From the NCBI GenBank assembly GCA_016841625.1, contig JAENYU010000041.1, positions 1-24,000 of the forward strand: a stretch of 24,000 nucleotides of DNA. Reading direction: 5' to 3'. The notes beneath the pieces are model-generated. The model made no database searches. It had not been told where the DNA came from and was given only the letters and a program-made list of their open reading frames with translations. The DNA comes from Methanobacteriota archaeon. Its GTDB lineage: Archaea > Halobacteriota > Methanosarcinia > Methanosarcinales > Methanosarcinaceae. The position numbers were made by a program, and so were the translations under genes. Every line of letters starts with the position of its first letter. The first letter of the stretch is position 1. Below, in pieces: positions 1-19,346 of the stretch.

Positions 1-42
1 TTTATTTAACTATCGAAATTAATATGAAAATAGTGGGAACTG

Positions 43-201
43 TCAAACTAAGGCTTCAATCGAATCGGCAAAGGCAAAGAGGGCATCAACACGACGGACT
101 ATTTCGTGCTGTTCGGGGAGGGGTGGGAGTGGGAGAGGGCAGTAACGGATTGAAGAAGTTTTTGGTAAATAAAAAAGAAAAACTAAATTTTGAGCAACTA
201 C
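43..201 (-). pseudogene. hsdS: Relic of the conserved region of a type I restriction-modification specificity subunit (HsdS)
   Basis: The minus-strand frame reads ...[32 protein letters not shown]. The block LPPLxEQxxIVxxVDxLxxxxD is the hallmark conserved region of HsdS (compare EcoKI [22 protein letters not shown]). Only about 30 aa are recognisable and there is no target-recognition domain. The relic is bounded by stops and forms a G+C-rich patch inside AT-rich DNA. Confidence 0.55.
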
Positions 202-1104
202 TCAAAAAACCCCGAGACTTTGCTCTTTTGATTTATTAGATATTTTAAGATATACTTCGTTAATTTTATTTATACAAAATAATCTGTTTTCATCGATTAC
301 TTTGACTAAATCCTCTGTGATTTGAAGTTCATCACGTTTATACGTAACACTTTTTCTTTTTTGAAGTATAATTTCATTTTTATCAGGGTAAGACCAGACG
401 GCATCGTGTGCAACTCTATTTCTAATGGATTTTATAAATTCTAATTTTTCATTGATCTCCTTTGTAATGCTCGTTTCTATGCCTTCTTCTTTGCATATTT
501 TTAAAAAAATGTTCTTTTTCTTGTCAAAATTTAATGTTATTATAATTAGATCTTCTAAAAGAAAGGTCTTCCTACTCTGTGGTGTACAAAAGTAGTTTGA
601 GATAAAAAAATCTAAATAGTCTTCAATGTGTACTGCCATCCTCAATATTTCACCACATTTTTCATTGAAGTTTTTATTTATATCTTCAATATCGACTTGC
701 TTTCCAGTAAGCAAATCTAAAAAATCATCATCAACGTAACAGAAAGATTGTGGTGCTTTAAAATCAGTAATTAATGAGTATGGATCGAAAGATTTTGGGA
801 AAATTTCTAGGTTTTCAATTGTAATTGCAAAACCTTGTTGCTTATTCCTGAAATAATTAAAGAAATTTTCTTTTCCAATCCCAGCAAAATCATTGCATTG
901 CTCCCATAATTCATTTGGGCTTCCTTTAATGATTTTACCAATTGTAAAGGCACCTATAATTTTTTTTACGGGATGACTTGAATAAATGAATACCTTTTTT
1001 ATTTCGTGGGGAGTTCTGAATATTACTCTTCTAAACTCATATTTTTTACTCCCATTAATTATTTCTTCAACATAAGTTGGTTTAATTGACAGTAAAACGT
1101 TCAT
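202..1104 (-). CDS. ASCH (PUA-like) domain protein fused to a C-terminal HEPN-like domain
   Basis: 300-aa ORF. The N-terminal ~125 aa fit the ASCH pattern: LLSIKPTYVEEIINGSKKYEFRR, VFIYSSHPVKKIIGAFTIGKII, SPNELWEQ, APQSFCYV. The C-terminal helical half carries an Rx4H HEPN signature (SIRNRVAHD). GAGG lies about 9 nt upstream of the ATG. The ATG sits 23 nt inside the upstream ORF, which suggests translational coupling. Confidence 0.75.
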   Translation of the reverse strand: MNVLLSIKPTYVEEIINGSKKYEFRRVIFRTPHEIKKVFIYSSHPVKKIIGAFTIGKIIKGSPNELWEQCNDFAGIGKENFFNYFRNKQQGFAITIENLEIFPKSFDPYSLITDFKAPQSFCYVDDDFLDLLTGKQVDIEDINKNFNEKCGEILRMAVHIEDYLDFFISNYFCTPQSRKTFLLEDLIIITLNFDKKKNIFLKICKEEGIETSITKEINEKLEFIKSIRNRVAHDAVWSYPDKNEIILQKRKSVTYKRDELQITEDLVKVIDENRLFCINKINEVYLKISNKSKEQSLGVF

Positions 1105-2605
1105 CGATTAGGCCTCGTTTTCTCAATAAAAGGTATTCTTCATGAGTTATCTGAGTTATGCTTTGGGGGGCAGCTTTTAAAATTCCAATTTCCTTTAATT
1201 CTTCCAATCCTAAAGGATTTGGCAAATGAAAATGCCATGTAAATAATATAACCAAAACGGGTTTTTTTGCGAAGTATTCAATTTCTGCTATTGGATAGAC
1301 AGATCTCTTTGCGATATATCGAATTATTTCTTCTTTGTTTTGAATTCCATTAAGCGCCTTTTCAACAACTCCTAATGAAGTTACAGCACTTTCATCTTGT
1401 GAACGATAAAATAATATAATGTCTCCACTTGAGATTTTTTTTATGTTTGAATGGCAAACATAGGCTTTTTTAATGGCATTACCTTCAATGATAAATCTAC
1501 CTGCAAACTCATCTAATGTAGGTTGCCTTCCTTTTTTTTGCTTGCTTTTATATTCGGTGAACAGCTTTTTGTGCCACTCCGGAAGAATAGGTACTATGAA
1601 TTTATTTACGTTTTTTCCATCACAATAACTAGGGTAATATTTTTTTGACATTTCATTTGCATTTATGTATTCAGTTTTGCTTTCATAAACAAGTTTTTTA
1701 AGGAATACTTTCTCCCCGCTCTGATTGAGAGTGGATACATTTTCGAAACCATACTCACTGATTAGATCAACAAGAAAATCGGAAGGTTTTATAAAATGAG
1801 TAAGATATATCTCATTGATTTTATTCTTGATTGAATAATCAACTGCAAGTTTGATAAAAAGTTCTCCAATTATGTTTCCTATATGGGATACTTTAAATGT
1901 GGACAACTTCAGCCTTTTTTTCTTGAAAAGTGGAGGTGTTGAATCTATCGGTTCGCATTCTACCTTATAAATTAGTAAGGCTCCAAGTTTCCCATTTTCT
2001 TTGAGATGGACAAAACATTTTCTACCTTCCCTTGAGATCCTCTTGAACCAATTTTCAAAATTATTTTCTCCATACTCTTCTTTTAGAGAATCGAAAAATT
2101 GATCATTTAAATCTAAATTGTAGACAAATTCATCTCTCAGGGCTGGAAGATGTGATATATTATTTGTATATACTCTATTTCCAAAGATCTCAATAGCTTC
2201 GTCAACTGATAACACACGATCTTTGATCCCCAAACGTTTAGATTTTTGGTGGATGTTATGATCACTTGTAATTAAAAAATCAGCAGCATCTTTATAAATT
2301 GCATACAGTATTGAATTATCAATTTCATCATTAATTTTTGATGGATTCCCAACAGCATTAAGGAACTCTTCATCCTTCACTGGATTAGGGGGGGATTCTA
2401 ATAATGGGTATGCTCCGATTTTTGATAAAACTATAATTTTTCTATTTTCATCAGTATCTCTTTTTATATCTTCGATTGAACCCGGATGTATGAGTATGCT
2501 TGCCTTTACTTGATAAAGGATTTTTACTAAATTCTGAATATTTAAAGAAAGAACTTTGTAATCCTCTCTATAAATAAATATATTCGTGTCAATCAATATA
2601 CGCAT
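1082..2605 (-). CDS. PIN - GNAT-like - ASCH/PUA-like triple-domain protein
   Basis: 507-aa ORF. The N-terminus is a classic PIN domain (MRILIDTNIFIY ... DFLITSDHN, with the acidic residues present). The middle is GNAT-like (GALLIYKVE ... LKLSTFKVSHIGNIIGELFIKLAVDYS ... EIYLTHF ... LISEYGFE ... GEKVFLKKL). The C-terminus is PUA-like (KKISSGDIILFYRSQDESAVTSLGVVEKA ... VLVILFTWHF ... AAPQSITQI) and shares the (A/P)PQS motif with the downstream ASCH protein. Confidence 0.75.
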   Translation of the reverse strand: MRILIDTNIFIYREDYKVLSLNIQNLVKILYQVKASILIHPGSIEDIKRDTDENRKIIVLSKIGAYPLLESPPNPVKDEEFLNAVGNPSKINDEIDNSILYAIYKDAADFLITSDHNIHQKSKRLGIKDRVLSVDEAIEIFGNRVYTNNISHLPALRDEFVYNLDLNDQFFDSLKEEYGENNFENWFKRISREGRKCFVHLKENGKLGALLIYKVECEPIDSTPPLFKKKRLKLSTFKVSHIGNIIGELFIKLAVDYSIKNKINEIYLTHFIKPSDFLVDLISEYGFENVSTLNQSGEKVFLKKLVYESKTEYINANEMSKKYYPSYCDGKNVNKFIVPILPEWHKKLFTEYKSKQKKGRQPTLDEFAGRFIIEGNAIKKAYVCHSNIKKISSGDIILFYRSQDESAVTSLGVVEKALNGIQNKEEIIRYIAKRSVYPIAEIEYFAKKPVLVILFTWHFHLPNPLGLEELKEIGILKAAPQSITQITHEEYLLLRKRGLIDERFTVN

Positions 2606-2789
2606 GTTATTACTTCTTGTAAGGTCTTCTTTAATAAAAATATGTTTGTTTATTCTTAAAGGATCATCTTAAATAAATATAATGTCTACATTTTAGATAT
2701 ATTGATTTTGTTTCGATCTGATGGTTTTTCAATTGAAGACTTTCATGAGGTTCATTGGTTGTAAATTCAAGGATAGTTGGTGTGTTTAA
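2606..2789. promoter_or_regulatory. Divergent AT-rich control region of the ASCH/GNAT cassette
   Basis: A 184-bp gap lies between the divergently oriented ORFs. TATA-like boxes occur on both strands (aaataaatataatg about 2671-2684; ttttagatatatt about 2691-2703). A perfect 10-bp palindrome TTCAATTGAA sits at 2728-2737. GGTG lies 7 nt upstream of the TTG start at 2790. Promoter assignment is inferred, not demonstrated. Confidence 0.3.
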
Positions 2790-4664
2790 TTGGAGAAAGA
2801 GGAATACCAATTTAAAGTACTTTATCTCAAAAATGAACTTGACAGTGTTAAACTTCTACTACAAGATGCTCCTGAGTTTCAGAAACATTATCTAGATTTT
2901 AATAGATGGCTTGATAATGCATTAAAAGAAGCTCAGGAAGGAAAAAGGCTAGTTTATGCTTTGTATCGGCCAATTATGGATAATGGAAATCCTATATTAC
3001 AAATGATTGGTGTAGCTTTCATAAAAATAACTGGACAAACAGCTGAATTGAAAAGTCTGTTTGTTCATGATAGCTCACGAGGGTCTGATAGAAAATATGG
3101 GAGTCATCTATACAAAAATGTAGAAGAGCAATTAGCAAAAAAGGGAGTCTCCAAGATAATTACCGATGTTCCCTGCGAGAATAATCAGGTAAGTTGGTTT
3201 CTTATTCAACATGGTTTTCAGATTAACGGTTTAATTGAAAGGTACAAAAAAGATGACTTTTGTTATATTTTATCTAAAGATGTTAAATCATACTATACAG
3301 GGGATATTTTTGATTGGTATAATGTTGTGAGTTGGTTTTTGGAAAATGTATATCAGTTTGAAATTGGAGAACCTGATATTCTGAATTCAGATAAAATGCT
3401 ACTTATTCCAATATTAAACAATAATAAAAATTTAAGGGTGCCTTTGTTACCATCTTTAAAAGGTATTTCTTTAGTATACGATGTGATGGAAGAAAGTGAT
3501 CTGTTAGTTGTCGATAGTTTATTAGAGAGAATAGATGGAAGCATTCGCATCGTTTTCGCAAAAGAGTTTGGTGATGGGATTGTAGCTAAACTTAATGAAA
3601 ATCATTTTTTAACGTTTGACCAGAATCAGGTCTTTGAATTATGTGGTTGCCCAGATCTCATCTTTGAAAAAGATGAGATTAAGGGGATTATTGTTGAAAT
3701 GAAAAATGATTATTTTGGACGAATAGATGAAGAGTTAGAATACTTTACTTATGTAAAAGGGGCAGGTATTGGAAAATTTGCCAAAAAAGACGATTTTGTA
3801 TTGTTCTTTGTTGATCGTCACGATAAATATCCACAAGGTGCCCTAATGGGTTTTGGAAAAATTAAAAAAATTTCATGTGCGTCCCCAAAAGAACAATGGA
3901 TTCATTATGGACAATTAAATCCCCTTTTTTCGCAGCAGGAATTTGATCAGTTCACGAGTTATAAAAAAGAAGTAATTGGAATTGTAGTCGAAGATTTTAC
4001 GAAAATCTCTCCTATTTCTCATGATGAATTCAGGACTCTGTTCTCAGGAGTAATTTCTACTGAAGACATTGGAAATATGTATGTAAATGAAGATTTCATG
4101 GAGATATTTATGGAAGATGTATCAAATGAAATGAAATCTATAGAAAATAAGGAAATAAGTAATAATGATCCAAATGGTACAAATGACACTGCTCTATTAT
4201 CACCCGAAAAACCCTACAGCAATATTAGAAATTTGAGACTTTCTCTTGAGAATTGTAAAACATTTATTTGGTGGATAGATAAACACTTCAGTAAAAAAGG
4301 GTTTGAGCCGTTAGCAGAGATTGTGGATGCCAACAAGGTACAAAATATCAGAATCTTAATGGGCAATAGCAATGTAAATGATAGCATGAAAAAAGATTAT
4401 GAAAGATTCAAAAGTGAAATGAACAATAAAGAAATCGAAGTCGAATGCCGAGTTATATCAGACTCAAGTCTTTTAAATAAAATTCATGATAGATGGGTTA
4501 TAGCTGAAAATGTAACATATAATCTCCCACCCATAAACACGATTTATCAGAATCAATTTGCTGAAATCAAAAAAACAAACATTTCACTCCCCTTTGATGA
4601 TTGGTGGGATCAAGGAATTGAATTAATTTCAGGCTGGAATTCTATTTTAAGCGCAAAAAAGTGA
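2790..4664 (+). CDS. GNAT acetyltransferase - ASCH/PUA-like - C-terminal MIT_C/PLD-fold-like multidomain protein
   Basis: 624-aa ORF. It opens directly after an in-frame TAA, so the TTG at 2790 is the only start that keeps the GNAT domain intact. GNAT: IGVAFIKITGQTAELKSLFVHDSSRGSDRKYGSHLYKNVEEQLAKKGVSKIITDV...NNQVSWFLIQHGFQ. The mid region parallels the ASCH protein (DDFVLFFVD...MGFGKIKKISCASPKEQWIHYG...VIGIVVEDFTKI). An Asn-rich linker follows. The C-terminal ~150 aa (FIWWIDKHF...IRILMG...EIEVECRVI...KIHDRWVIAENVTYNLP) follow, as I recall it, the strand/HDR pattern of the MITD1 C-terminal PLD-fold domain. Confidence 0.7.
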   Translation: MEKEEYQFKVLYLKNELDSVKLLLQDAPEFQKHYLDFNRWLDNALKEAQEGKRLVYALYRPIMDNGNPILQMIGVAFIKITGQTAELKSLFVHDSSRGSDRKYGSHLYKNVEEQLAKKGVSKIITDVPCENNQVSWFLIQHGFQINGLIERYKKDDFCYILSKDVKSYYTGDIFDWYNVVSWFLENVYQFEIGEPDILNSDKMLLIPILNNNKNLRVPLLPSLKGISLVYDVMEESDLLVVDSLLERIDGSIRIVFAKEFGDGIVAKLNENHFLTFDQNQVFELCGCPDLIFEKDEIKGIIVEMKNDYFGRIDEELEYFTYVKGAGIGKFAKKDDFVLFFVDRHDKYPQGALMGFGKIKKISCASPKEQWIHYGQLNPLFSQQEFDQFTSYKKEVIGIVVEDFTKISPISHDEFRTLFSGVISTEDIGNMYVNEDFMEIFMEDVSNEMKSIENKEISNNDPNGTNDTALLSPEKPYSNIRNLRLSLENCKTFIWWIDKHFSKKGFEPLAEIVDANKVQNIRILMGNSNVNDSMKKDYERFKSEMNNKEIEVECRVISDSSLLNKIHDRWVIAENVTYNLPPINTIYQNQFAEIKKTNISLPFDDWWDQGIELISGWNSILSAKK

Positions 4665-4673
4665 AAGGTTCAA

Positions 4674-4700
4674 GGAAAAGCCGCTTCGCTTCGCGAACGG
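4674..4700 (+). repeat. Copy A of the recurring GGAnAAGCCGCTT hairpin element
   Basis: The sequence is ggaaaagccgcttcgcttcgcgaacgg. The first 20 nt are identical to 15822-15841. It can fold as CCG-C-TTCGC / loop TTC / GCGAA-CGG. It sits in the convergent gap at the right edge of AT-rich island 1. Confidence 0.6.
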
Positions 4701-4719
4701 GACAGAACAGCCATTTTGC

Positions 4720-6975
4720 TCACCCAGACTGCTTGCTTTTCCCCTTCCCCTTCCCCTCCCCAAACTTCGCATACATTTTCCTGGCATATTTTTTCAGCAG
4801 GTAATTCAGGCTCTCCTTCGAAATCGGTTTTGACTTCTTGACCACCATTACCGGCTTTCTGGCATGTATGGCGACCCTCTGGGACAGGGTCCCGAGCAGG
4901 GAAACCTTGAACCTCTGGCTGGAGTCGCCGATGATTGTCAGGTCGCTGTAATTTGAGGCTTCGAGGATGGCGTCTTCTATGGAGTATCTTTCCAGGAGTT
5001 TGAAGCTGACGGGTATCTGGGTTATGTTTTTGGATAGGGTTTCAAGTTCTTCGGAGATTTCCTTTTTCTCCTCCGGGGTCTCATCGGGGCTTATGATTCT
5101 GATTATTTCTATGGCAGCCCCGGTGTTTACAGCCAGTTTTTTTGCCAGGTGAAGGCCGTGGCTGGAATTTTCCTTTCCGTTATATGCTACAAGGATTTTC
5201 TTTATTTTTTCCGGGAGCTTTCCTTTTAATAAAGCGATCTGCTTTTTTGAGGACGAGAGGACGCCGTTTGTGACTTCTCCGAGGTAGTACTGGAATCCCT
5301 TTGCTTCGTGCCACCCCAGGATAATCAGGTCTACGCTCTCTATTTCAGCCTGTTCTATTATTGAATTTGAGATCCTGTGGTCAAAGGCAACTATATATTC
5401 TCTTTTCTGTCCGAAAATTGCAGGGTAGCGGTCAAACTTTTCTTTGAAACGAGTATCCATCTCTATCTTCTTTTCGTGGTAGGCATCCTGAGCTAACTTC
5501 AAGTTTGTCTGGTCAGGGACTTCAATCACATGGAGGCAAATTATCTCGCTTCCCAGGCAATCGGCAAGCTTCAAAAGGTCGCGTTCGTGTGCGGGATTGG
5601 AAATGGGTACCAGTACTTTAGCCACGGAGTCGGGTTTTATGTGCGTTTTTTCGACCGTGTTTTCCAGCAGGTCAAATAAGTTGTATTCCGGCATGGCTTT
5701 GCCCCTTCCATAGAACCGGTACCAGACAGCTCCTATGAATACCAGAATTAAGATGAAAAGGAAAGGAAAAATCCCAAGCAGCGGCAGCAATATTATGCTC
5801 CCGACAACCCCTATGATCTGGGTGAAAGGGAAAAAAGGGTCACGGAACGCAGGTTCGTATCCGGGTAAAGTCCGTTTTCTGAGGATTATTACTGCCATAT
5901 TCAGCAGGATAAATATCAAAATGTTAAAAGCGCCGCCGAGTCTTGCCAGTTCCTCTATATCAAAGAGGAATAGGAGCACGACCATTACGATTCCTGTGAC
6001 CAGGATCGCATTATGGGGAGTCCCGTACTTTTTATGGACCAGGACAAACCATTCCGGCATCAGGGCATCTCTGCTCATAGCAAAAGGAAACCTTGAAGAC
6101 GAAAGTATGGCACCGTTGGCTGTGGAAAGCGTTGCAAGCAGGGCAGCAAGGACAATAGCGATCCTCCCGAATTTTCCTGCCATCAGGCCTGCTATATCTG
6201 CCAGGGGAGTGACCAGAGTTGCGGTCCCTTCAGCCCCTGAGAACCCGACGACTGCTATCATTATGCCGACATAGAACAGGGTTACTACAACTGCTGAAGC
6301 AATAAACGCTCTCGGTAAGTTCTTTGCCGGGTTTTTTACTTCCTCAGAGACCGCTGCAAGTTCTGCCAGTCCCAGGTAAGATATGAAAATAATTCCTGTT
6401 GTGGTGATTATCGATGTCATCCCATAAGGTGTGACAGGGGAAAAGTTAGCCGGCTCAATCCTGAAAAATAATCCGGCTATGAATAAAAGCAGTATTGCCA
6501 GCAGGAGGATCACAATAACGTTCTGCAGCGAACCGCTGCTTTTTGCACCGCGGTAATTAATTGCTAACAGGAGAACTCCCGTGGCAGCTGCTACGAAATA
6601 GAGCGGCAGGGGATAGAAAAGCTGAAAATACTCTGCAAGCCCGATCAGGGCAAACGTCCCTTTGAATATCAATGCCATCCAGGAGCCAAGCCCGATTACC
6701 GCCCCGAATGCAGCCCCCATTGTCCTGCTGATGTAGTAATAGCTGCCGCCTGCAAGGGGCATGCCTGTTGCCAGCTCTGCCATACTGATGGCTGTGGCTA
6801 TTGAAATTATCCCGGCCAGCAGAAAGGAGATTATTGCTCCGGGGCCGGCATTTGCTATGGCTATTCCCGGAAGAATGAATATTCCAGCTCCGATCATCGT
6901 CCCGGTCCCTATTGTGAAAGTCGAGAAAAAGCCCAGGCTGCGCCCCAGCCTCTCCGTTGTTTCAACTGCTGCCAT
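4720..6975 (-). CDS. APC-superfamily amino acid permease fused to tandem C-terminal universal stress protein (UspA) domains
   Basis: 751-aa ORF. The N-terminal ~440 aa are polytopic with the typical APC start (FSTFTIGTGTMIGAGIFILPG). The C-terminal ~300 aa contain two Usp-like alpha/beta modules (KVLVPISNPAHE...DLIILGWH ; KILVAYNGKENSSHGLHLAKKLA...DLTIIGDS). The protein ends in a Gly/Lys tail. Confidence 0.85.
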   Translation of the reverse strand: MAAVETTERLGRSLGFFSTFTIGTGTMIGAGIFILPGIAIANAGPGAIISFLLAGIISIATAISMAELATGMPLAGGSYYYISRTMGAAFGAVIGLGSWMALIFKGTFALIGLAEYFQLFYPLPLYFVAAATGVLLLAINYRGAKSSGSLQNVIVILLLAILLLFIAGLFFRIEPANFSPVTPYGMTSIITTTGIIFISYLGLAELAAVSEEVKNPAKNLPRAFIASAVVVTLFYVGIMIAVVGFSGAEGTATLVTPLADIAGLMAGKFGRIAIVLAALLATLSTANGAILSSSRFPFAMSRDALMPEWFVLVHKKYGTPHNAILVTGIVMVVLLFLFDIEELARLGGAFNILIFILLNMAVIILRKRTLPGYEPAFRDPFFPFTQIIGVVGSIILLPLLGIFPFLFILILVFIGAVWYRFYGRGKAMPEYNLFDLLENTVEKTHIKPDSVAKVLVPISNPAHERDLLKLADCLGSEIICLHVIEVPDQTNLKLAQDAYHEKKIEMDTRFKEKFDRYPAIFGQKREYIVAFDHRISNSIIEQAEIESVDLIILGWHEAKGFQYYLGEVTNGVLSSSKKQIALLKGKLPEKIKKILVAYNGKENSSHGLHLAKKLAVNTGAAIEIIRIISPDETPEEKKEISEELETLSKNITQIPVSFKLLERYSIEDAILEASNYSDLTIIGDSSQRFKVSLLGTLSQRVAIHARKPVMVVKKSKPISKESLNYLLKKYARKMYAKFGEGKGKGKSKQSG

Positions 6976-7157
6976 CTCTGTTCCCCCCTCTGCAGGACTT
7001 TCTAACCGGTAAACCGGGCCTTTATAGATATACAGTCTTTCATTATTCCGACAAGCTTAAGAATATATCCCCATCCCCAGGCCGCCGGACAGGCAGCAAA
7101 AGTTCAAATCACTATTTTAGCGGATCTTGCTTTCGAATATACATATACGTATCCTTC

Positions 7158-7172
7158 GATATTATATAATTT
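7158..7172 (+). promoter_or_regulatory. TATA-box-like element upstream of the YwbE-like gene
   Basis: cgatattatataatt is centred about 25 nt upstream of the ATG at 7190. That spacing fits an archaeal promoter producing a leaderless or short-leader transcript. Confidence 0.35.
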
Positions 7173-7189
7173 CTAACCCACTTTTTACC

Positions 7190-7384
7190 ATGAACGCAGG
7201 CACTAGCAGATCGAACATCAAACCCGGCCTAAAAGTGGGAATCGTCTTAAAAAAGGATCAGAGGACAGGAAAAATAACCCAGGGTACCGTAAAGCGAATT
7301 TTAACCAAATCCCCAAATCATCCGCATGGCATAAAGGTCCAGCTGGAAGACGGACAGGTGGGAAGGGTTAAGGAAATCTATTAA
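7190..7384 (+). CDS. YwbE/DUF2196-family small conserved protein
   Basis: The internal ATG of the 7127..7384 ORF gives 64 aa: MNAGTSRSNIKPGLKVGIVLKKDQRTGKITQGTVKRILTKSPNHPHGIKVQLEDGQVGRVKEIY. This matches the YwbE-family pattern (R..I..G..V.IV.K.DQ.TG....G.V..ILT.S..HP.GIKV.L..G.VGRV). The upstream 21 codons overlap the TATA box and look non-coding. Confidence 0.75.
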   Translation: MNAGTSRSNIKPGLKVGIVLKKDQRTGKITQGTVKRILTKSPNHPHGIKVQLEDGQVGRVKEIY

Positions 7385-7476
7385 AAACTGGCAGGATTTT
7401 TGGTCTTAAACATAACTTTTTAATTTCAGATCAGGACTATAGTTTGTTCTGCGACTGAATTCATTCTTTTCATACA

Positions 7477-7503
7477 GGAGAAGCCGCTTTACCTTGCAAA
7501 CGG
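7477..7503 (+). repeat. Copy D (diverged) of the GGAnAAGCCGCTT hairpin element
   Basis: The sequence is ggagaagccgctttaccttgcaaacgg. It shares GGAnAAGCCGCTT with the other copies. It keeps the CCG...CGG outer stem, and the inner stem is changed to TTT/AAA. It lies about 93 nt downstream of the YwbE-like gene. Confidence 0.4.
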
Positions 7504-7665
7504 ATAAAATGATCAGTATGAACTCTTATATTCATACCGGCTTTGATCTGCCTTCAAAACAGATCGCATCCTGCCTGGATATAATTACGTGAGATTAACC
7601 CGGTTAAATATACTCAAGGATTATTCGGTCCATCAAACCGGGCTTGCTTTTGATAAAGCCAATCT

Positions 7666-8328
7666 TTATAAGGCACTCTGGAAGGATACAGTATATACTA
7701 TGTACAGACTTAGAGCAAGTGCGATAAGTGTTTGAAAAGTTGTAAAATTTCTCATTCTGCTCGTGTCCCCGGTCACTTTCCTGTATACAGGGAGTCCTGG
7801 AGCGAGAGGAACCTTTTTTGTCGAAGCCCCAAATAACATGGCTCCAATGAATAGAAGTACTGTCGAAATGATCATTGTCTTAAAATAAAGAGGTTGTTCG
7901 GTAGGGTGTGTCATTCCTGAGACTAGCTTGACATCCGTATTAAAATCTGCATTACTTATTTTTATTTGGTGAATTCCAGATGATCTCGGGGTAAACACAG
8001 TAAAGTCATCTACATATGTTCCGGATTGATGGGCTTTTCCAAAACTTTTTTGCCAGGAATATTCTGCGTTTTGCGGGTCAATAATAGTGATGTCCAAAAG
8101 TTCCGATCTGGTTTTTTCTGTTGAAAAAATAAAAGTTACCGGTTCGTTTTCTGTAAACATAACACTTTCATCAATATCATTGGACGGTCCTATTGAAGCA
8201 CTTAAAACTTCTTCTCCTGTAATAGATCCTGCTACCATGACAGAAAGTATCAAAAATGCAAAATTGAATATGGCAATCAGGAAAATAATATTAATAATTG
8301 AGTTAATGGATTTTCCAATCACTGACAT
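7666..8328 (-). CDS. Hypothetical membrane protein (N-terminal signal-anchor, beta-rich ectodomain, two C-terminal TM helices)
   Basis: 220-aa ORF. GGTGG lies about 9 nt upstream of the ATG. The N-terminal hydrophobic segment is IINIIFLIAIFNFAFLILSVMVAG, and two C-terminal hydrophobic segments follow. I recognise no family. Confidence 0.5.
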   Translation of the reverse strand: MSVIGKSINSIINIIFLIAIFNFAFLILSVMVAGSITGEEVLSASIGPSNDIDESVMFTENEPVTFIFSTEKTRSELLDITIIDPQNAEYSWQKSFGKAHQSGTYVDDFTVFTPRSSGIHQIKISNADFNTDVKLVSGMTHPTEQPLYFKTMIISTVLLFIGAMLFGASTKKVPLAPGLPVYRKVTGDTSRMRNFTTFQTLIALALSLYIVYTVSFQSAL

Positions 8329-8528
8329 TTATTCCGCCACCTGAACATTTGAAAATAGATAATAATTGTCCTTGTGTACAAATAGGCAGCTATTACATAT
8401 AATAATTCCCACTGTTAAACAATCTTTAAAAATATCTCGTTCCTTGATAAAAATGGAACAATTATAGTCAAGGACCCAAATTCTTTCACCAATTTCAGGT
8501 GAAAGTTTAACCACAGAAAGCACCGAAA

Positions 8529-8573
8529 GCACGGAATTAAGGAAAATAAGGACACGATCCTTCCGTGCTTTTT
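8529..8573 (+). terminator. Orphan strong hairpin followed by T5
   Basis: GCACGGAA (8529-8536) pairs perfectly with TTCCGTGC (8561-8568), with an inner AAGGA/TCCTT option, and is followed by TTTTT (8569-8573). No plus-strand gene ends here. Confidence 0.3.
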
Positions 8574-8834
8574 GTGTCTTCCGTGGTTATAAAGTAAGTG
8601 TAAATATTTACTATTCCTGAATAGGGATATAAGCTCCTTTTCAACTCTTTTCAACCTTCATTTCCCATTTTCCGAACTCTTTCCCGCAGCCAGCTTGCTT
8701 ATCGCCTTTTTACAATACCCTCTGTGTTTTGTTCTTTTTCTCTTCAAGTTCTTCTTAACACGGAAAAAGCACCGAAGAAACCACAAAAGAATTTTAAAGA
8801 GAGAAGGGTAAGGAAACCCCTTCACTCAGGGAAT

Positions 8835-9824
8835 TTAGCTCTTCCTCCTGATGAGGTAGACGACTGCAAGGAGTCCGACAAGGCAAAGGACAATTCCAAA
8901 TCCAGGAGTTCCTTCTCCTTCTTCTCCCCCAGTGGTGTTGTTGCCTGCAGTTTCTTCTTCAGTTTCTTCTTCAGCTGGTTCTTCAGCTGGTTCTTCAGTT
9001 ACGTTCTCGCCTGGAGTTTCAGTTACGTTCTCGCCAGCCTGGGTTTCGTTCTCTCCTGTTTCGGTTTCATTCCCTTCAGGAAGCCCTGTGGTTTCGTTTA
9101 CTTCCCCGAGAATCCTCACAACGAATGGGAAGTACCTGAGTTCCTCGACAGGGGTGTCACCGATCATGAAGAACATGCCTTCAGCGATTTCTTCTTCAGA
9201 GCCCATGGTCAGGGTGAAGGTATTTTCATTGCTGATGCTAAGGGTATCTCCCTGGATTGAAACATCGTCGAGCTTACCGAATTCGTCATCAGACTCGATG
9301 GTCATTGCGTTTGCATAGTCAATGAGCCAGATACCTTCGATCTGGGCAATACTGTCGACCGCACCCTGGAAGACCTGGTTGACGTGGACTCTGAGGACAA
9401 CAACATCATCTTCGCCCTCGATATCATCGAGTTCGACGTCCCAGGTTTTGCTGGTATTGTTGCCTCCCGTAGCGACTGAGATAATTTCATCGTCTACATA
9501 TTCTCCGTCCCTGTTGAACTGGAGCCAGACTTTCTCCCCGTTAACATCAACCTGCTTTGCCTCTAGAGTGTATCCCTGCCCGAGCTCAAGAGTTTCCCCG
9601 GTTCTGAGGGTGTACTTATCATCACTGTCAAGGACGAGCCTGGAAAGTTTATCAGCTCTGTCAGGTTTGAGTGGGACGGCTATCTGTGCGCCGAAACCGA
9701 TCATGCTGTAGTTGTCCCAGCCAGCAGCCGGGTTTTCGTATTCGTATCCAACCGGCATAATCATGGTTATGTAAATGAGGCCTCCCTCTCCAATGACGTT
9801 GTTTTCAGTGCCCGGAACAACCAA
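8835..9824 (-). CDS. S-layer-family duplication domain (DUF1608-type) protein with PGF-CTERM anchor, probably 5'-truncated
   Basis: KLSRLVLDSDDKYTLRTGETLELGQGYTLEAKQVDVNGEKVWLQFNRDGEYVDDEIISV...VVVLRVHVNQVFQGAVDSIAQIEGIWLIDYANAMTIESDDEFG is typical of the Methanosarcina S-layer domain. The C-terminus is a Glu/Thr/Asn-rich linker with at least 6 N-x-T sequons followed by PGFGIVLCLVGLLAVVYLIRRKS (PGF-CTERM). The ORF opens right after a TAA with only a TTG start. It has no signal peptide, and the first part of the domain is missing. Confidence 0.7.
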   Translation of the reverse strand: MVVPGTENNVIGEGGLIYITMIMPVGYEYENPAAGWDNYSMIGFGAQIAVPLKPDRADKLSRLVLDSDDKYTLRTGETLELGQGYTLEAKQVDVNGEKVWLQFNRDGEYVDDEIISVATGGNNTSKTWDVELDDIEGEDDVVVLRVHVNQVFQGAVDSIAQIEGIWLIDYANAMTIESDDEFGKLDDVSIQGDTLSISNENTFTLTMGSEEEIAEGMFFMIGDTPVEELRYFPFVVRILGEVNETTGLPEGNETETGENETQAGENVTETPGENVTEEPAEEPAEEETEEETAGNNTTGGEEGEGTPGFGIVLCLVGLLAVVYLIRRKS

Positions 9825-16477: not shown

Positions 16478-17890
16478 ATGGATCATCAACAAGCAAATAC
16501 TTCCATGAAAAAGAGAGTTACAGATTTAATTGTTATCTTTTCTGATGGACTGTACGAACGAGAAGAGATTGTTGCAGTTTCTCTTCTTTCAGTCCTTTCC
16601 GGGCAGTCAATTTTTTTATATGGCTTGCCAGGCACAGCGAAAAGTCTAATTGCCCGTCGTATATCAAAGGTGTTTAAAGATACAACTCATTTTGAGTATT
16701 TGATGCAAAGATTTAGCACTCCTGAAGATGTTTTTGGACCTGTAAGTATTCGAGAACTAAAACAGGACAATTACATTCGCAAAACAGAAGGCTACTTACC
16801 CACTGCTGACTTTGCTTTTCTTGATGAAATATGGAAAAGTAGTCCAGCCATTTTAAACACACTCTTGACTATTATAAATGAGCGAATTTATCGCAATGGC
16901 GGAAAAGACGAAAAAGTTCCATTAAAAGCATTGATTGCTGCAAGTAATGAGACTCCACCACCCAATCAAGGATTAGAAGCTCTCTATGACCGTTTTGTAA
17001 TGCGAGTAATAGTAAATCCTATGGAAGAAAGAGAGAATTTTGAAAAACTACTTGAAGGAGATGCTGTCTCGACTGATATTGAAATTCCGGATGGACTACA
17101 GTTTACTCACGATGAGTTTGAGCAACTTTCCAGTGAAATCGTTAAAGTAACAATTTCCAAAGAGGTATTTACCATCATAAATTCAATCAGAGTTTCACTT
17201 GATGAATTTAATAAAGATAATCCCAAAATTGCAGTTTATGTTTCTGATCGTAGGTGGCAGAAAATTGCACTCATTTTGAAAACATCTGCATTTTTGTGTG
17301 ACCGCACTGAGGTAATACCCGTTGATGCCCTTATATTACGACATTGTTTGTGGACACTTGAACAAAATAGAGAGCAAATTAATGAAATAATTGAAAAATG
17401 TGTGAAACAGTTTGGCTGCACCAACAATGAGAAGTTAAATAGCTGGGAATTGAACCATAAGGACCTTGAAAAAGGTATGTCTGATACATTCTTTTATACG
17501 GAAAATATTTATGACACCGAGAAAAAAGAAAATGTGCTAAATTATGGTGGGAAGTCCGGTTATGACAACGATTCATTTGTCAAATGGTTTGATTCAACTC
17601 CATCCATAAAAGTTAAAAAGGGAACTCAAAAGGCTGTGGCCCCAAGGACTAAAGATACTTTTGTTAAAGCTTGTGAAGATTCTTTGAGTTCACTTGCTGA
17701 AATTATTAATGACGCAAAATCTAATGTCGCTATTCAAAAAAAATTGAATGAAACCCCATTTGTACCTTCAGAAAAAAGAGAATTAGTGTTTGATGTATTC
17801 AACTCTTTTCTCAAAGATTTAGAAAACCACAAATTGAATGCCGAGCGTTTGTTGGAAAAGGTGCAATCTTATGCAATCTCCGAATCGTGA
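16478..17890 (+). CDS. ravA: RavA-like MoxR-class AAA+ ATPase
   Basis: 470-aa ORF, colinear with the E. coli RavA AAA+ module as I recall it: LYEREEIVAVSLLSVLSGQSIFLYGLPGTAKSLIARR (Walker A), FEYLMQRFSTPEDVFGP, ADFAFLDEIWKSSPAILNTLLTIINER (Walker B), LIAASNE (sensor 1), LEALYDRF (Arg finger), VSDRRWQKIALILKTSAFLCDRTEVIPVDALILRHCLW. The C-terminal ~170 aa diverge and I see no evident LARA-like domain. Confidence 0.85.
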   Translation: MDHQQANTSMKKRVTDLIVIFSDGLYEREEIVAVSLLSVLSGQSIFLYGLPGTAKSLIARRISKVFKDTTHFEYLMQRFSTPEDVFGPVSIRELKQDNYIRKTEGYLPTADFAFLDEIWKSSPAILNTLLTIINERIYRNGGKDEKVPLKALIAASNETPPPNQGLEALYDRFVMRVIVNPMEERENFEKLLEGDAVSTDIEIPDGLQFTHDEFEQLSSEIVKVTISKEVFTIINSIRVSLDEFNKDNPKIAVYVSDRRWQKIALILKTSAFLCDRTEVIPVDALILRHCLWTLEQNREQINEIIEKCVKQFGCTNNEKLNSWELNHKDLEKGMSDTFFYTENIYDTEKKENVLNYGGKSGYDNDSFVKWFDSTPSIKVKKGTQKAVAPRTKDTFVKACEDSLSSLAEIINDAKSNVAIQKKLNETPFVPSEKRELVFDVFNSFLKDLENHKLNAERLLEKVQSYAISES

Positions 17891-19346
17891 AATTGCTAAA
17901 ACAGAGGAATTAGTCAATACTTTTCTTTCAGAAGATTTCCCTGATCTAAATAGTGGAGAACTTGAAAAAGAATTGAGTGGAAAAGTTAGTAATTGGGAGG
18001 AGTCAACTCTCAGTTATTTAGAAAACTCAAACCCTTTTGAAAAACATCGGTCTAAATTGGTCTCTGCAAAATGGGATTTTCTGGCACATGGTGGCTCTGA
18101 AAAGTCAATTATAAGCGATTTAGAGGAATATAAGTCACTCCAACCATCCGCAGATGTTATGTTTTGGGAAGAAAAGACACTTGCTGTGAAAAAAAAGGTA
18201 GAGGAAAAGGAGAAAGAGTCAATCATAGAAAGCCTTAATGTTATTCGTAGGAATGAGCAAGAAGCATGGAGAACAGAGTATGAAAAACAATTACTTGAAT
18301 GGCAACTCAAAGAAATCCAAAATCGCCGGGAACAATTGTTAAAAGAGTTAAAAGAATGGCTTGACCCTTTACAGCAAATGAAAGAGGTATTTGATGAGTT
18401 GGGTGTTGAGCCTGGACTTTTGTGGGATTCAAGTGTTGGCAAATTAAGTAAGCAAGACATATCTTTCCTTAAACAATGGGCAGAATATCTGAAAAATAAT
18501 GAAAGCGTTCGTAATTTATGTGAATTAATGGGAAGATTACATAAAGAACAACAATCTCATCACAAAGAGATTATTAATTCAACCGTTCAATATACTGTTA
18601 TAAAACCAGATATATATTCCAATGAAGAGATTGTTGGTATTGAGCTTGGTAGAGATTTAGAAAATGTTATACCACAAGAATTGGCTCTATTAAGTGACTC
18701 TGATATTGCATTGCTTTTTGACTTGAAATATGTTGAAAATCGACTGATGTGTTTTTCTCAACAGGGCTACAAAACAGAAATCTTTGAAGAGAACATTCAG
18801 AAAACCGTAAGCATTGTTGATGATGAAAAGATGGGGCCGATAATTATTTGTGTTGATACAAGTGGATCTATGTCAGGTGCTCCAGAGAATATAGCTAAAG
18901 CATTAACTCTTAGTTTGTCATCTCGAGCAGTTTCTCAAAAGAGAAAATGTTATTTGATAAATTTCAGTACTTCAATAGAGACCCTTGATCTTACCCCTCC
19001 GAAAGGCATTCATGATTTGATAAACTTTCTTAAAATGAGTTTTCATGGGGGCACCAATGTTGCACCAGCTTTACACGAGGGGGTACGGATGATGTTGGAA
19101 GCTGATTACAAAAAAGCGGATTTATTGGTTATTTCAGATTTTGTTCTCTATGGTTTATCTTCTAATATTGTTTCCCAGTGCAAAAAGCAAAAACAAGAGG
19201 ATAATCGCTTTTTTGCATTGTCCATCGGTAGTTTTGACCCTCAGCGTGTTGATGAAGATGTTTTTGATCAGAGTTGGACATATAACCCTCAAAGTGGTGG
19301 CATTTCAGAAATCAACAATGTGGTTGAATGTGTTACTCGGAAATAA
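17871..19346 (+). CDS. viaA: ViaA-like protein: coiled-coil-rich N-terminal region plus C-terminal von Willebrand factor A domain with intact MIDAS
   Basis: The ORF is open from 17838, and the ATG at 17871 (MQSPNREI) overlaps the ravA-like stop by 20 nt. VWA/MIDAS: IIICVDTSGSMSG ... CYLINFST ... FHGGTNVAPAL ... ADLLVISDF. This parallels E. coli ViaA (VCVDTSGSM..., CYIMLFST, FRGGTD, VVISDF). The start codon is uncertain (17838 or 17871). Confidence 0.8.
   Translation: MQSPNREIAKTEELVNTFLSEDFPDLNSGELEKELSGKVSNWEESTLSYLENSNPFEKHRSKLVSAKWDFLAHGGSEKSIISDLEEYKSLQPSADVMFWEEKTLAVKKKVEEKEKESIIESLNVIRRNEQEAWRTEYEKQLLEWQLKEIQNRREQLLKELKEWLDPLQQMKEVFDELGVEPGLLWDSSVGKLSKQDISFLKQWAEYLKNNESVRNLCELMGRLHKEQQSHHKEIINSTVQYTVIKPDIYSNEEIVGIELGRDLENVIPQELALLSDSDIALLFDLKYVENRLMCFSQQGYKTEIFEENIQKTVSIVDDEKMGPIIICVDTSGSMSGAPENIAKALTLSLSSRAVSQKRKCYLINFSTSIETLDLTPPKGIHDLINFLKMSFHGGTNVAPALHEGVRMMLEADYKKADLLVISDFVLYGLSSNIVSQCKKQKQEDNRFFALSIGSFDPQRVDEDVFDQSWTYNPQSGGISEINNVVECVTRK

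Follow-up and report, generated by a model that had tools for sequence, protein, structure and literature searches.

A PIN-GNAT-EVE protein with an overlapping ASCH-domain partner as a candidate RNA-targeting conflict module in Methanosarcinaceae

We analysed a 24,000-nt stretch of a Methanosarcinaceae genome (GenBank assembly GCA_016841625.1, contig JAENYU010000041.1, positions 1 to 24,000; the whole stretch is called the window below), centring on a minus-strand gene near its start, here called gene A, that encodes a single chain made up of a PIN nuclease domain, a GNAT-like domain and a PUA-like domain. With a probability that we put at about 0.5, gene A encodes the large subunit of an already catalogued two-gene conflict module that targets RNA in the manner of a toxin-antitoxin (TA) system and is held in check by an enzymatic ASCH-domain antagonist, the product of the overlapping gene B. 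The parts of this reading differ in strength. Judged by sequence comparison, gene A is virtually certain to belong to the PIN-GNAT-EVE family, which is PDC-M11 in PADLOC, and a conflict or defence role for the module is likely; that the ASCH partner controls the system as an enzymatic eraser is a tentative proposal with the odds somewhat against it. The PIN-GNAT-EVE architecture is not new, having been described by comparative genomics since 2013 and included in PADLOC since 2023. What this locus adds is a further family member with two local twists, an ASCH-HEPN partner and a third gene, gene C, of GNAT-PUA type.

The organization of gene A is as follows.

1082..2605, minus strand: gene A, PIN-GNAT-EVE protein (PADLOC PDC-M11A) of 507 amino acids (aa), stop codon included; from the open reading frame (ORF) and PADLOC profile PDLC04422.
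2165..2605, minus strand: PIN nuclease domain, residues 1-147; from conserved acidic residues, Pfam PIN_3 in relatives and the alternating strands and helices of the model.
1691..2137, minus strand: GNAT-like domain, residues 157-305; from Foldseek, a Naa50 profile match and Acetyltransf_1 in relatives.
1862..1882, minus strand: GNAT motif-A loop, residues 242-248 (I-G-N-I-I-G-E); from alignment to the Naa50 segment R-G-I-G-I-G.
1085..1606, minus strand: PUA-like (EVE/ASCH-type) domain, residues 334-507; from Foldseek, Pfam EVE and an EVE-type motif.

The ORF runs unbroken from ATG to TAA over 507 codons, and the protein matches the PDC-M11A profile almost end to end (E = 1.8e-153; residues 1-506 of 507 on profile positions 1-500 of 501). 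In an exhaustive HMMER search the family came to 1807 clusters at E<=1e-3, of which 581 reached E<=1e-30. The profile match and the size of the family together exclude a chance origin for gene A. Its relatives are nearly all about 500 aa long, and more than 500 clusters (at 50% identity) align over their full length. An AlphaFold2 model calculated with 68 diverse homologues is continuous and confident (mean predicted local distance difference test score, pLDDT, 92.8; predicted template-modelling score, pTM, 0.78), with dips only at the inter-domain linker 148-156 and the loop 350-373. A search of the whole protein against PDB sequences gave no match. The original prediction, made from the DNA letters alone, had described the product as PIN, GNAT-like and ASCH/EVE-like folds in one polypeptide, and this is borne out by the model, by Foldseek and by Pfam matches across the 68 members; the strings it had quoted are present at residues 3-11 (ILIDTNIFI) and 112-117 (ITSDHN). 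It had also allowed that the ORF might be two genes joined by a missed frameshift. We rejected that possibility because the clusters are collinear over about 500 aa and the model is unbroken: gene A is one gene.

The predicted PIN active site of gene A is complete, as judged from residue conservation among the 68 diverse homologues, which are the basis of all counts for gene A residues unless stated otherwise. The metal-binding acids D6, D96 and D115 are present in 68/68 sequences and position 46 is Asp or Glu in every one; T7 is kept in 65, N8 in 67, E14 in 65 and Thr or Ser at position 113 in all 68. Profile searches recognize the domain at lower levels of significance. Pfam PIN_3 matches 21/68 relatives at E<0.01 (best 1.7e-6) and scores the gene A protein itself at 13.7 bits (cut-off 27), and a profile of the PIN domain searched against the PDB gave weak, sub-threshold matches to PIN structures (1o4w, E 0.18; 3ix7, E 0.94).

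The central domain has a GNAT-like fold, with Foldseek matches that include PaiA (1tiq), NatD, NatC, TacT3 (7ak9) and AtaT (6gtp). Its profile matches Naa50 (6yzz, E 1.1e-7), and Pfam Acetyltransf_1 is found at E<0.01 in 33/68 relatives. The original prediction had left open whether the PIN acids or the GNAT acetyl-CoA-binding motif might prove degenerate; the acids are intact, whereas the GNAT motif A is non-canonical. The canonical form of this motif, the acetyl-CoA pyrophosphate loop, is Q/R-x-x-G-x-G/A. The family has (R)-G-x-[K/R]-[L/I]-G-E, which departs from it, and the central Gly (position 245) is replaced by Lys or Arg in 224 of 236 members, the larger set over which this position was counted. 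The surrounding residues are nearly invariant (G243 65/68, G247 65/68, E248 67/68). With conservation of at least 96% at G243, G247 and E248 and with Lys or Arg at position 245 in 95% of members, the loop is, on sequence grounds, remodelled and constrained rather than decayed. The three conserved residues argue that the loop is functional and do not carry the argument further; that the domain is an active acyltransferase is rather doubtful.

The copy in gene A itself differs from most of its family in this loop. Codon 245 (1871-1873, minus strand) encodes Ile in place of the Lys or Arg found in 95% of members, Ile being seen otherwise only in P0006 and P0012, and codon 242 (1880-1882, minus strand) encodes Ile where many members carry Arg, again in common with those two sequences. 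P0006 and P0012 are the two closest relatives of gene A.

The C-terminal domain is PUA-like. Its best Foldseek match is the Zymomonas ASCH protein ZmASCH (5guq, E 1e-7, TM 0.80), followed by EVE structures (2gbs, 1zce), and Pfam EVE matches 27/68 relatives and scores the gene A protein at 18.5 bits (E 0.002), below the cut-off of 23. An EVE-type G-D-x3-F-Y-R-S motif lies at residues 394-402 (GDIILFYRS), and three aromatic residues typical of a base-binding pocket, Y382, Y400 and F455, are present in 68/68 homologues. The octapeptide G-x-K-x-x-E-x-R of ASCH enzymes is absent from the sequence of this domain, the equivalent segment in gene A reading G375-N-A-I-K-K-A-Y382. By these residues the domain is a non-catalytic EVE-type pocket, devoid of the ASCH catalytic residues.

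Those residues are found instead in gene B, which has the following features.

202..1104, minus strand: gene B, a 300-aa ASCH-HEPN-like fusion whose N-terminal part is PADLOC PDC-M11B; from the ORF.
1082..1104, minus strand: overlap of genes A and B, 23 nt, with the ATG of B inside ...ATCGATGAACG... of the gene A end; from the sequence.
709..1104, minus strand: ASCH domain of B, residues 1-132; from PDC-M11B, Pfam ASCH and Foldseek.
1030-1053, minus strand: ASCH motif of B, G18-x-K20-x-x-E23-x-R25; from the sequence.
205..699, minus strand: HEPN-like all-alpha C-terminus of B, residues 136-300; from the motif and weak Pfam matches.
406-423, minus strand: R228-N-R-V-A-H233 of B, an R-x4-H motif of HEPN type.

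Residues 1-132 of gene B match PDC-M11B (E 1.1e-48), Pfam ASCH scores 21.6 bits, above its cut-off of 21.2, and the structural matches include ZmASCH, TthASCH (2dp9), YqfB (9kyf) and EOLA1 (5y7d). The ASCH octapeptide reads G18-S-K20-K-Y-E23-F-R25, and across 66 aligned sequences (gene B and 65 partners) K20 is 98%, E23 97% and R25 97% conserved; together with Y41 and W67 these residues form an enzyme-like conserved set in the ASCH partners. TthASCH, YqfB and EOLA1 are experimentally demonstrated amidohydrolases of N4-acetylcytidine (ac4C) that require the Lys/Glu dyad of this motif. The dyad is essential for removal of ac4C from tRNA by TthASCH, EOLA1 and TRIP4-ASCH, and 19/19 ASCH proteins assayed removed ac4C (10.64898/2026.02.27.708502). 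An idea related to the mechanism favoured below is put forward in the EOLA1 preprint for ASCH proteins within restriction-modification (RM) operons. A dyad in gene B and the lack of the motif in the PUA-like domain of gene A fit a division between a reader and an eraser. This placement of the dyad in the partner only, taken with the recognition in 2025-2026 of ASCH proteins as ac4C amidohydrolases, yields a concrete eraser-as-antitoxin hypothesis.

Gene B is twice the usual length of an ASCH partner, and full-length homologues with this ASCH-HEPN fusion were found only in five relatives, Methanosarcina among them. The additional half, residues 136-300, is probably a HEPN-like RNase domain. The RNRxAH motif is kept in 6/6 homologues, and three HEPN-type Pfam models match weakly around it (E 0.003-0.07, below their cut-offs). 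This half is modelled as a helical bundle from 6 sequences, with pLDDT about 65 and below 50 right after RNRVAH, and Foldseek with this low-confidence model found no HEPN match. The label is given as probable because it is based on the motif and the weak profile matches, the model being poor and a structural match lacking.

The two genes are paired far beyond this locus. With a 14-sequence alignment we gathered 80 genomic loci from archaea and bacteria, 68 of which were informative, with the whole 3' end of A and 400 nt or more of sequence beyond it. In 59/68 informative loci A is followed directly, in the same orientation, by an ASCH gene, and 36 of those 59 share an identical 23-nt overlap. 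In the remaining informative loci the ASCH gene is convergent (4), upstream (2) or not detected (3). By its overlap, gene A is translationally coupled to its ASCH partner.

This pairing bears directly on how gene A is controlled. The original prediction had held that no separate antitoxin exists and that regulation is consequently intramolecular; that claim is not supported, because a dedicated ASCH gene (202..1104) overlaps A and recurs beside it in 59/68 loci. The model that followed from the claim, a self-contained dual toxin of PIN and GNAT checked only by its own PUA domain, has in its favour the presence of three domains in one confidently modelled chain and the 3/68 loci with no detectable ASCH neighbour. 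It is contradicted by the overlapping partner and by the non-canonical GNAT motif A, and we consider it highly improbable. A VapBC-type arrangement is likewise not found here: upstream of A there is no small co-directional antitoxin gene, only a 184-bp gap and then a divergent 624-aa gene.

Earlier descriptions of the family agree with the pairing. A passage of Matelska 2017 places the architecture under the PIN_15 and PIN_17 groups and states that a second PUA gene is always present (PMC5499597), and the section by Bell, Wolf & Koonin 2020 that names PIN-GNAT-EVE calls the ASCH gene near-universal in the operon and notes that none of these modules has been characterised (PMC7641849). Where they treat its origin, both credit the first description to Iyer 2013 (PMC5499597, PMC7641849). 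PADLOC carries PDC-M11 as a multi-gene phage defence candidate of a kind that the authors call untested (bioRxiv 10.1101/2024.01.29.577857); PDC-M11 was predicted from the embedding of its genes within BREX, DISARM or type I RM operons, a guilt-by-embedding approach (Payne et al., 10.1101/2024.01.29.577857).

A co-encoded, overlapping partner could mean a conventional type II TA system, in which the PIN domain acts as toxin and is neutralised through binding of the ASCH protein, an HTH fusion, where there is one, represses the operon and the GNAT-like and EVE domains are non-catalytic. The overlapping, co-directional genes and the non-canonical GNAT motif A are consistent with this, as are the HTH-XRE-ASCH fusions that occur in some relatives, a feature also recorded in the Bell 2020 account (PMC7641849) and seen here in P0286 and P0287. 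However, the partner gene lies after the toxin gene and not before it. Typical antitoxins evolve fast, whereas this partner is well folded and slowly evolving, with enzyme-like invariant residues (K20, E23, R25, Y41, W67). It is also fused, depending on lineage, to further domains that a simple plug would not need: HsdS (L047-L051), P-loop kinases (L065, L072, L080), a GNAT-PUA module (L011, L013) and HEPN. We regard a conventional type II system as unlikely.

In other genomes the pair is often found next to or within type I RM operons. A single-sequence search placed homologues of type I RM subunits within 6 kb in at least 17/80 loci. In L086 (IMG/VR contig, 299-9185) the A-B pair is enclosed by hsdM and an hsdS gene whose product has 1054 aa and several domains; an N6_N4 DNA methylase encoded upstream in this contig appears to bear an intein, with a weak Intein_splicing match under the Pfam cut-off. 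On a haloarchaeal plasmid type I-B cas genes precede the pair by about 4.5 kb, and in Mesorhizobium it is accompanied by two ASCH genes, an XRE regulator and an AAA ATPase. The passages of Bell 2020 on PIN-GNAT-EVE describe the same association with type I RM and CRISPR loci (PMC7641849).

Such neighbours raise an RM-like alternative, which the relevant passages of PMC7641849 and PMC5499597 attribute to Iyer et al. 2013: a GNAT would mark host DNA by base acylation, EVE and ASCH domains would read the mark, RNA cut by PIN would serve as guide or be the substrate, and the system would cooperate with type I RM. The ASCH-HsdS fusions of the Methanosarcinaceae loci L047-L051 speak for it, as do the insertion in L086 and the at least 17/80 loci near type I RM genes; EVE domains, moreover, read modified cytosines in DNA according to a passage of Bell 2020 (PMC7641849). 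Against these points, the GNAT motif A is derived and the copy in the window has no adjoining RM genes. PIN and HEPN families are overwhelmingly RNases, and we know of no DNA acetyl mark of such a kind. DNA acylation as the basis of the system therefore seems quite unlikely to us.

Two further contexts concern the nuclease domains. In Methanosarcina mazei (L084, L085; 1-8500) hsdR-hsdM-hsdS are followed by two small ORFs, a GNAT-EVE gene, an ASCH-HEPN gene and MNT/HEPN pairs. The M. mazei GNAT-EVE protein has 365 aa and no PIN domain, and its ASCH-HEPN partner is 76% identical to gene B. Set against the presence of both nucleases at our locus, this suggests that the RNase module is interchangeable between the subunits and appears as PIN on A, as HEPN on B or, as here, as both. 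Such interchangeability points to RNA cleavage as the output. Desulfosporosinus L061 and L068 (4186-7449) have GNAT-EVE (366 aa), ASCH and PIN-GNAT-EVE (514 aa) in tandem, so that the PIN-less and PIN-bearing forms flank a single ASCH gene.

The PIN-less forms are central to another proposal, for which we draw on the relevant passages of Bell 2020: PIN-GNAT-EVE would be a counter-measure to viral GNAT-EVE proteins, degrading tRNAs that these have poisoned by acetylating modified aminoacyl-tRNAs. The occurrence of GNAT-EVE in prophages and of PIN-GNAT-EVE near defence genes, reported in those passages (PMC7641849), accords with this idea, and so does the Desulfosporosinus tandem. However, PIN-less GNAT-EVE is also found in a host defence island, beside hsdRMS of M. 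mazei. A search of 2.9 million viral contigs, with patterns tuned to the archaeal clade, gave 1 match, seemingly in a host RM context. The proposal would also leave the invariant ASCH dyad without a role. We judge it very unlikely. A prophage ASCH gene of Dickeya, reported from Tn-seq to be essential, could not be tied to any neighbouring GNAT-EVE gene and is not counted as evidence here.

The distribution of the pair is patchy, extending over Methanosarcinales, Thermoplasmata, Asgard archaea, Chloroflexota, Desulfobacterota, Bacillota and others; a PDC-M11 homologue is also present in E. coli O157:H7 ECRC101. In L046, L051, L059 and L072 the A gene is broken into two ORFs by frameshifts or stops, and these copies are probably pseudogenes, as expected of dispensable conflict genes. 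At our locus the island formed by genes A, B and C (window positions 1-4700) has a GC content of 30-32% (31% as a whole, with flanks at about 50%), against 45-54% in neighbouring genes, which indicates that it was horizontally acquired; its left border falls outside the start of the window. The patchy spread, the RM and CRISPR neighbours, the split copies and the low-GC island are together in keeping with a mobile conflict module and speak against a housekeeping function. A housekeeping pair for RNA processing or ac4C turnover could be read from the JGI automatic names, some homologues being labelled 'rRNA-processing protein FCF1', and from the removal of ac4C from tRNA by ASCH enzymes (10.64898/2026.02.27.708502). 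We rejected this role, which distribution and genomic context render extremely improbable.

Gene C completes the island as an accessory third gene of this subclade, transcribed divergently from A.

2606..2789, no strand assigned: divergent A/C intergenic region, AT-rich, 184 bp, with presumed promoters; from the sequence.
2790..4664, plus strand: gene C, 624 aa, with GNAT (1-165), a middle part without assignment, EVE-like PUA (about 300-460) and a variable C-terminus (470-624); from Pfam and phmmer.

Pfam Acetyltransf_1 scores gene C at 23.5 bits (cut-off 20.7), and phmmer ties its residues 346-459 to the ASCH-type domains of L011 and L013. A direct BLASTP comparison of A and C showed no significant paralogy. 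The gene C family comprises 20 clusters, the named ones all from Methanolobus; at least 8 of its members share a contig with a gene A homologue, and in L001 and L083 a gene C homologue stands next to A and is transcribed away from it. The final 155 residues of gene C have no homologue or family match, and the equivalent part in L083 is a PNP_UDP_1 nucleosidase-type domain.

In the mechanism that we favour, genes A and B would form a TA or abortive-infection-like system acting on nucleic acid, most likely RNA, since PIN and HEPN, the two kinds of nuclease found here, are families of RNases. The choice of target, a base bearing an acyl group or another modification, would lie with the EVE pocket and the GNAT-like domain, which might also create that modification. 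The bound molecule would then be cut by the PIN domain, and at this locus the HEPN-like domain of B may cut it too. The ASCH partner would restrain the system by removing the mark and not as a passive protein plug, much as DarG reverses DarT, and virus infection would tip the balance to cleavage and growth arrest.

Several observations weigh against this reading. The first group concerns the GNAT-like domains: motif A is non-canonical throughout the family, the gene A copy lacks both the leading Arg and the Lys or Arg of its family, and motif A of gene C is likewise atypical. Matelska 2017, in a passage on this architecture, notes that GNAT motif A is missing and that acetyltransferase activity is probably absent (PMC5499597), although the conserved replacement of Gly by Lys or Arg puts that view of an inactive GNAT in question. 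The second concerns the target. Fusions of ASCH partners to HTH-XRE or HsdS fit DNA binding or regulation at least as well as they fit RNA deacetylation, and the structural matches of gene B include the ASCH domain of TRIP4 bound to double-stranded DNA (PDB 9kyl); the HsdS and HTH fusions and the DNA-bound TRIP4 structure keep DNA-directed alternatives alive. The third concerns context and precedent. No restriction or other defence gene lies beside the island within the window, which ends 200 nt past gene B. Our literature searches gave no experimental work on the PIN-GNAT-EVE family, and PDC-M11 is an untested candidate.

In a more far-reaching version of the favoured mechanism, an acyl mark on nucleic acid (N4-acylcytosine, for example) would serve as an immune signal, and the locus would hold a whole circuit of writer, reader, eraser and executioner for it. 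Writing would fall to the GNAT domain of A or C, reading to the EVE-type pockets and erasure to the ASCH domain, and PIN and HEPN would act on marked or unmarked molecules. Taken as a whole the circuit is improbable; if true, no earlier defence system would have rested on reversible base acylation, new chemistry would come to prokaryotic immunity, and the recently discovered ASCH deacetylases would have a part in that immunity.

Scans of the whole window for Rfam families and for tRNAs gave nothing. A second stretch of low GC (about 35%, between flanks of about 50%) at 16478-19346 on the plus strand encodes a MoxR-type AAA ATPase (Pfam bpMoxR PF20030, E 1e-51) and then, overlapping it by 53 nt, a VWA-domain protein; this looks like another conflict-type module, of the MoxR-vWA kind, acquired separately from the island. 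The remaining genes noted are ordinary host genes: an amino-acid permease fused to two universal-stress-protein domains (4720-6975, minus strand) and a Methanosarcina-type S-layer protein with a PGF-CTERM anchor (8835-9824, minus strand). Along with the best sequence matches, they support an archaeal, Methanosarcinales-like origin of the stretch.

Among known systems, the PIN-GNAT-EVE and ASCH operons described in passages by Matelska and Bell are the closest, with the same domain order, size and obligatory second PUA-type gene, the same sporadic distribution in archaea and bacteria and the same link to type I RM. The HEPN-like C-terminus of B and the divergent gene C are not mentioned in those passages on PIN-GNAT-EVE, but nothing essential differs, and gene A is on this ground a member of the family. 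The match to PDC-M11 likewise covers A end to end and residues 1-132 of B, and the pair in L086 lies inside a type I RM operon; PDC-M11, however, is a two-gene model, whereas here B is doubled in length and no defence system visibly adjoins the pair in the window.

Comparison with classical TA systems gives likeness in single domains. The GNAT fold of A superposes on the toxins TacT3 (7ak9) and AtaT (6gtp). The GNAT toxins of TacAT, AtaRT, KacAT and ItaRT are stand-alone proteins of about 160-175 aa that carry canonical acetyl-CoA motifs and have an RHH antitoxin encoded upstream; in gene A, by contrast, the GNAT domain is internal, its motif A is derived and there is no RHH gene. With VapBC, gene A has in common the PIN acidic residues and the DTN and T-x-D motifs, but it has no small upstream VapB-type gene, its PIN domain is the first 147 of 507 residues and its partner is a downstream ASCH gene. 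The likeness to DarTG is in the proposed logic only, in which a transferase would mark a base and a co-encoded hydrolase would take the mark off, and both are defence-associated TA-like pairs. There is no homology, DarT being an ADP-ribosyltransferase and DarG a macrodomain protein. Finally, gene B has the same ASCH fold as YqfB, TthASCH, EOLA1 and TRIP4-ASCH and the same G-x-K-x-x-E-x-R octapeptide with its Lys/Glu dyad. Those proteins are stand-alone or eukaryotic housekeeping proteins, whereas gene B is coupled in an operon to PIN-GNAT-EVE and fused to a HEPN-like domain.

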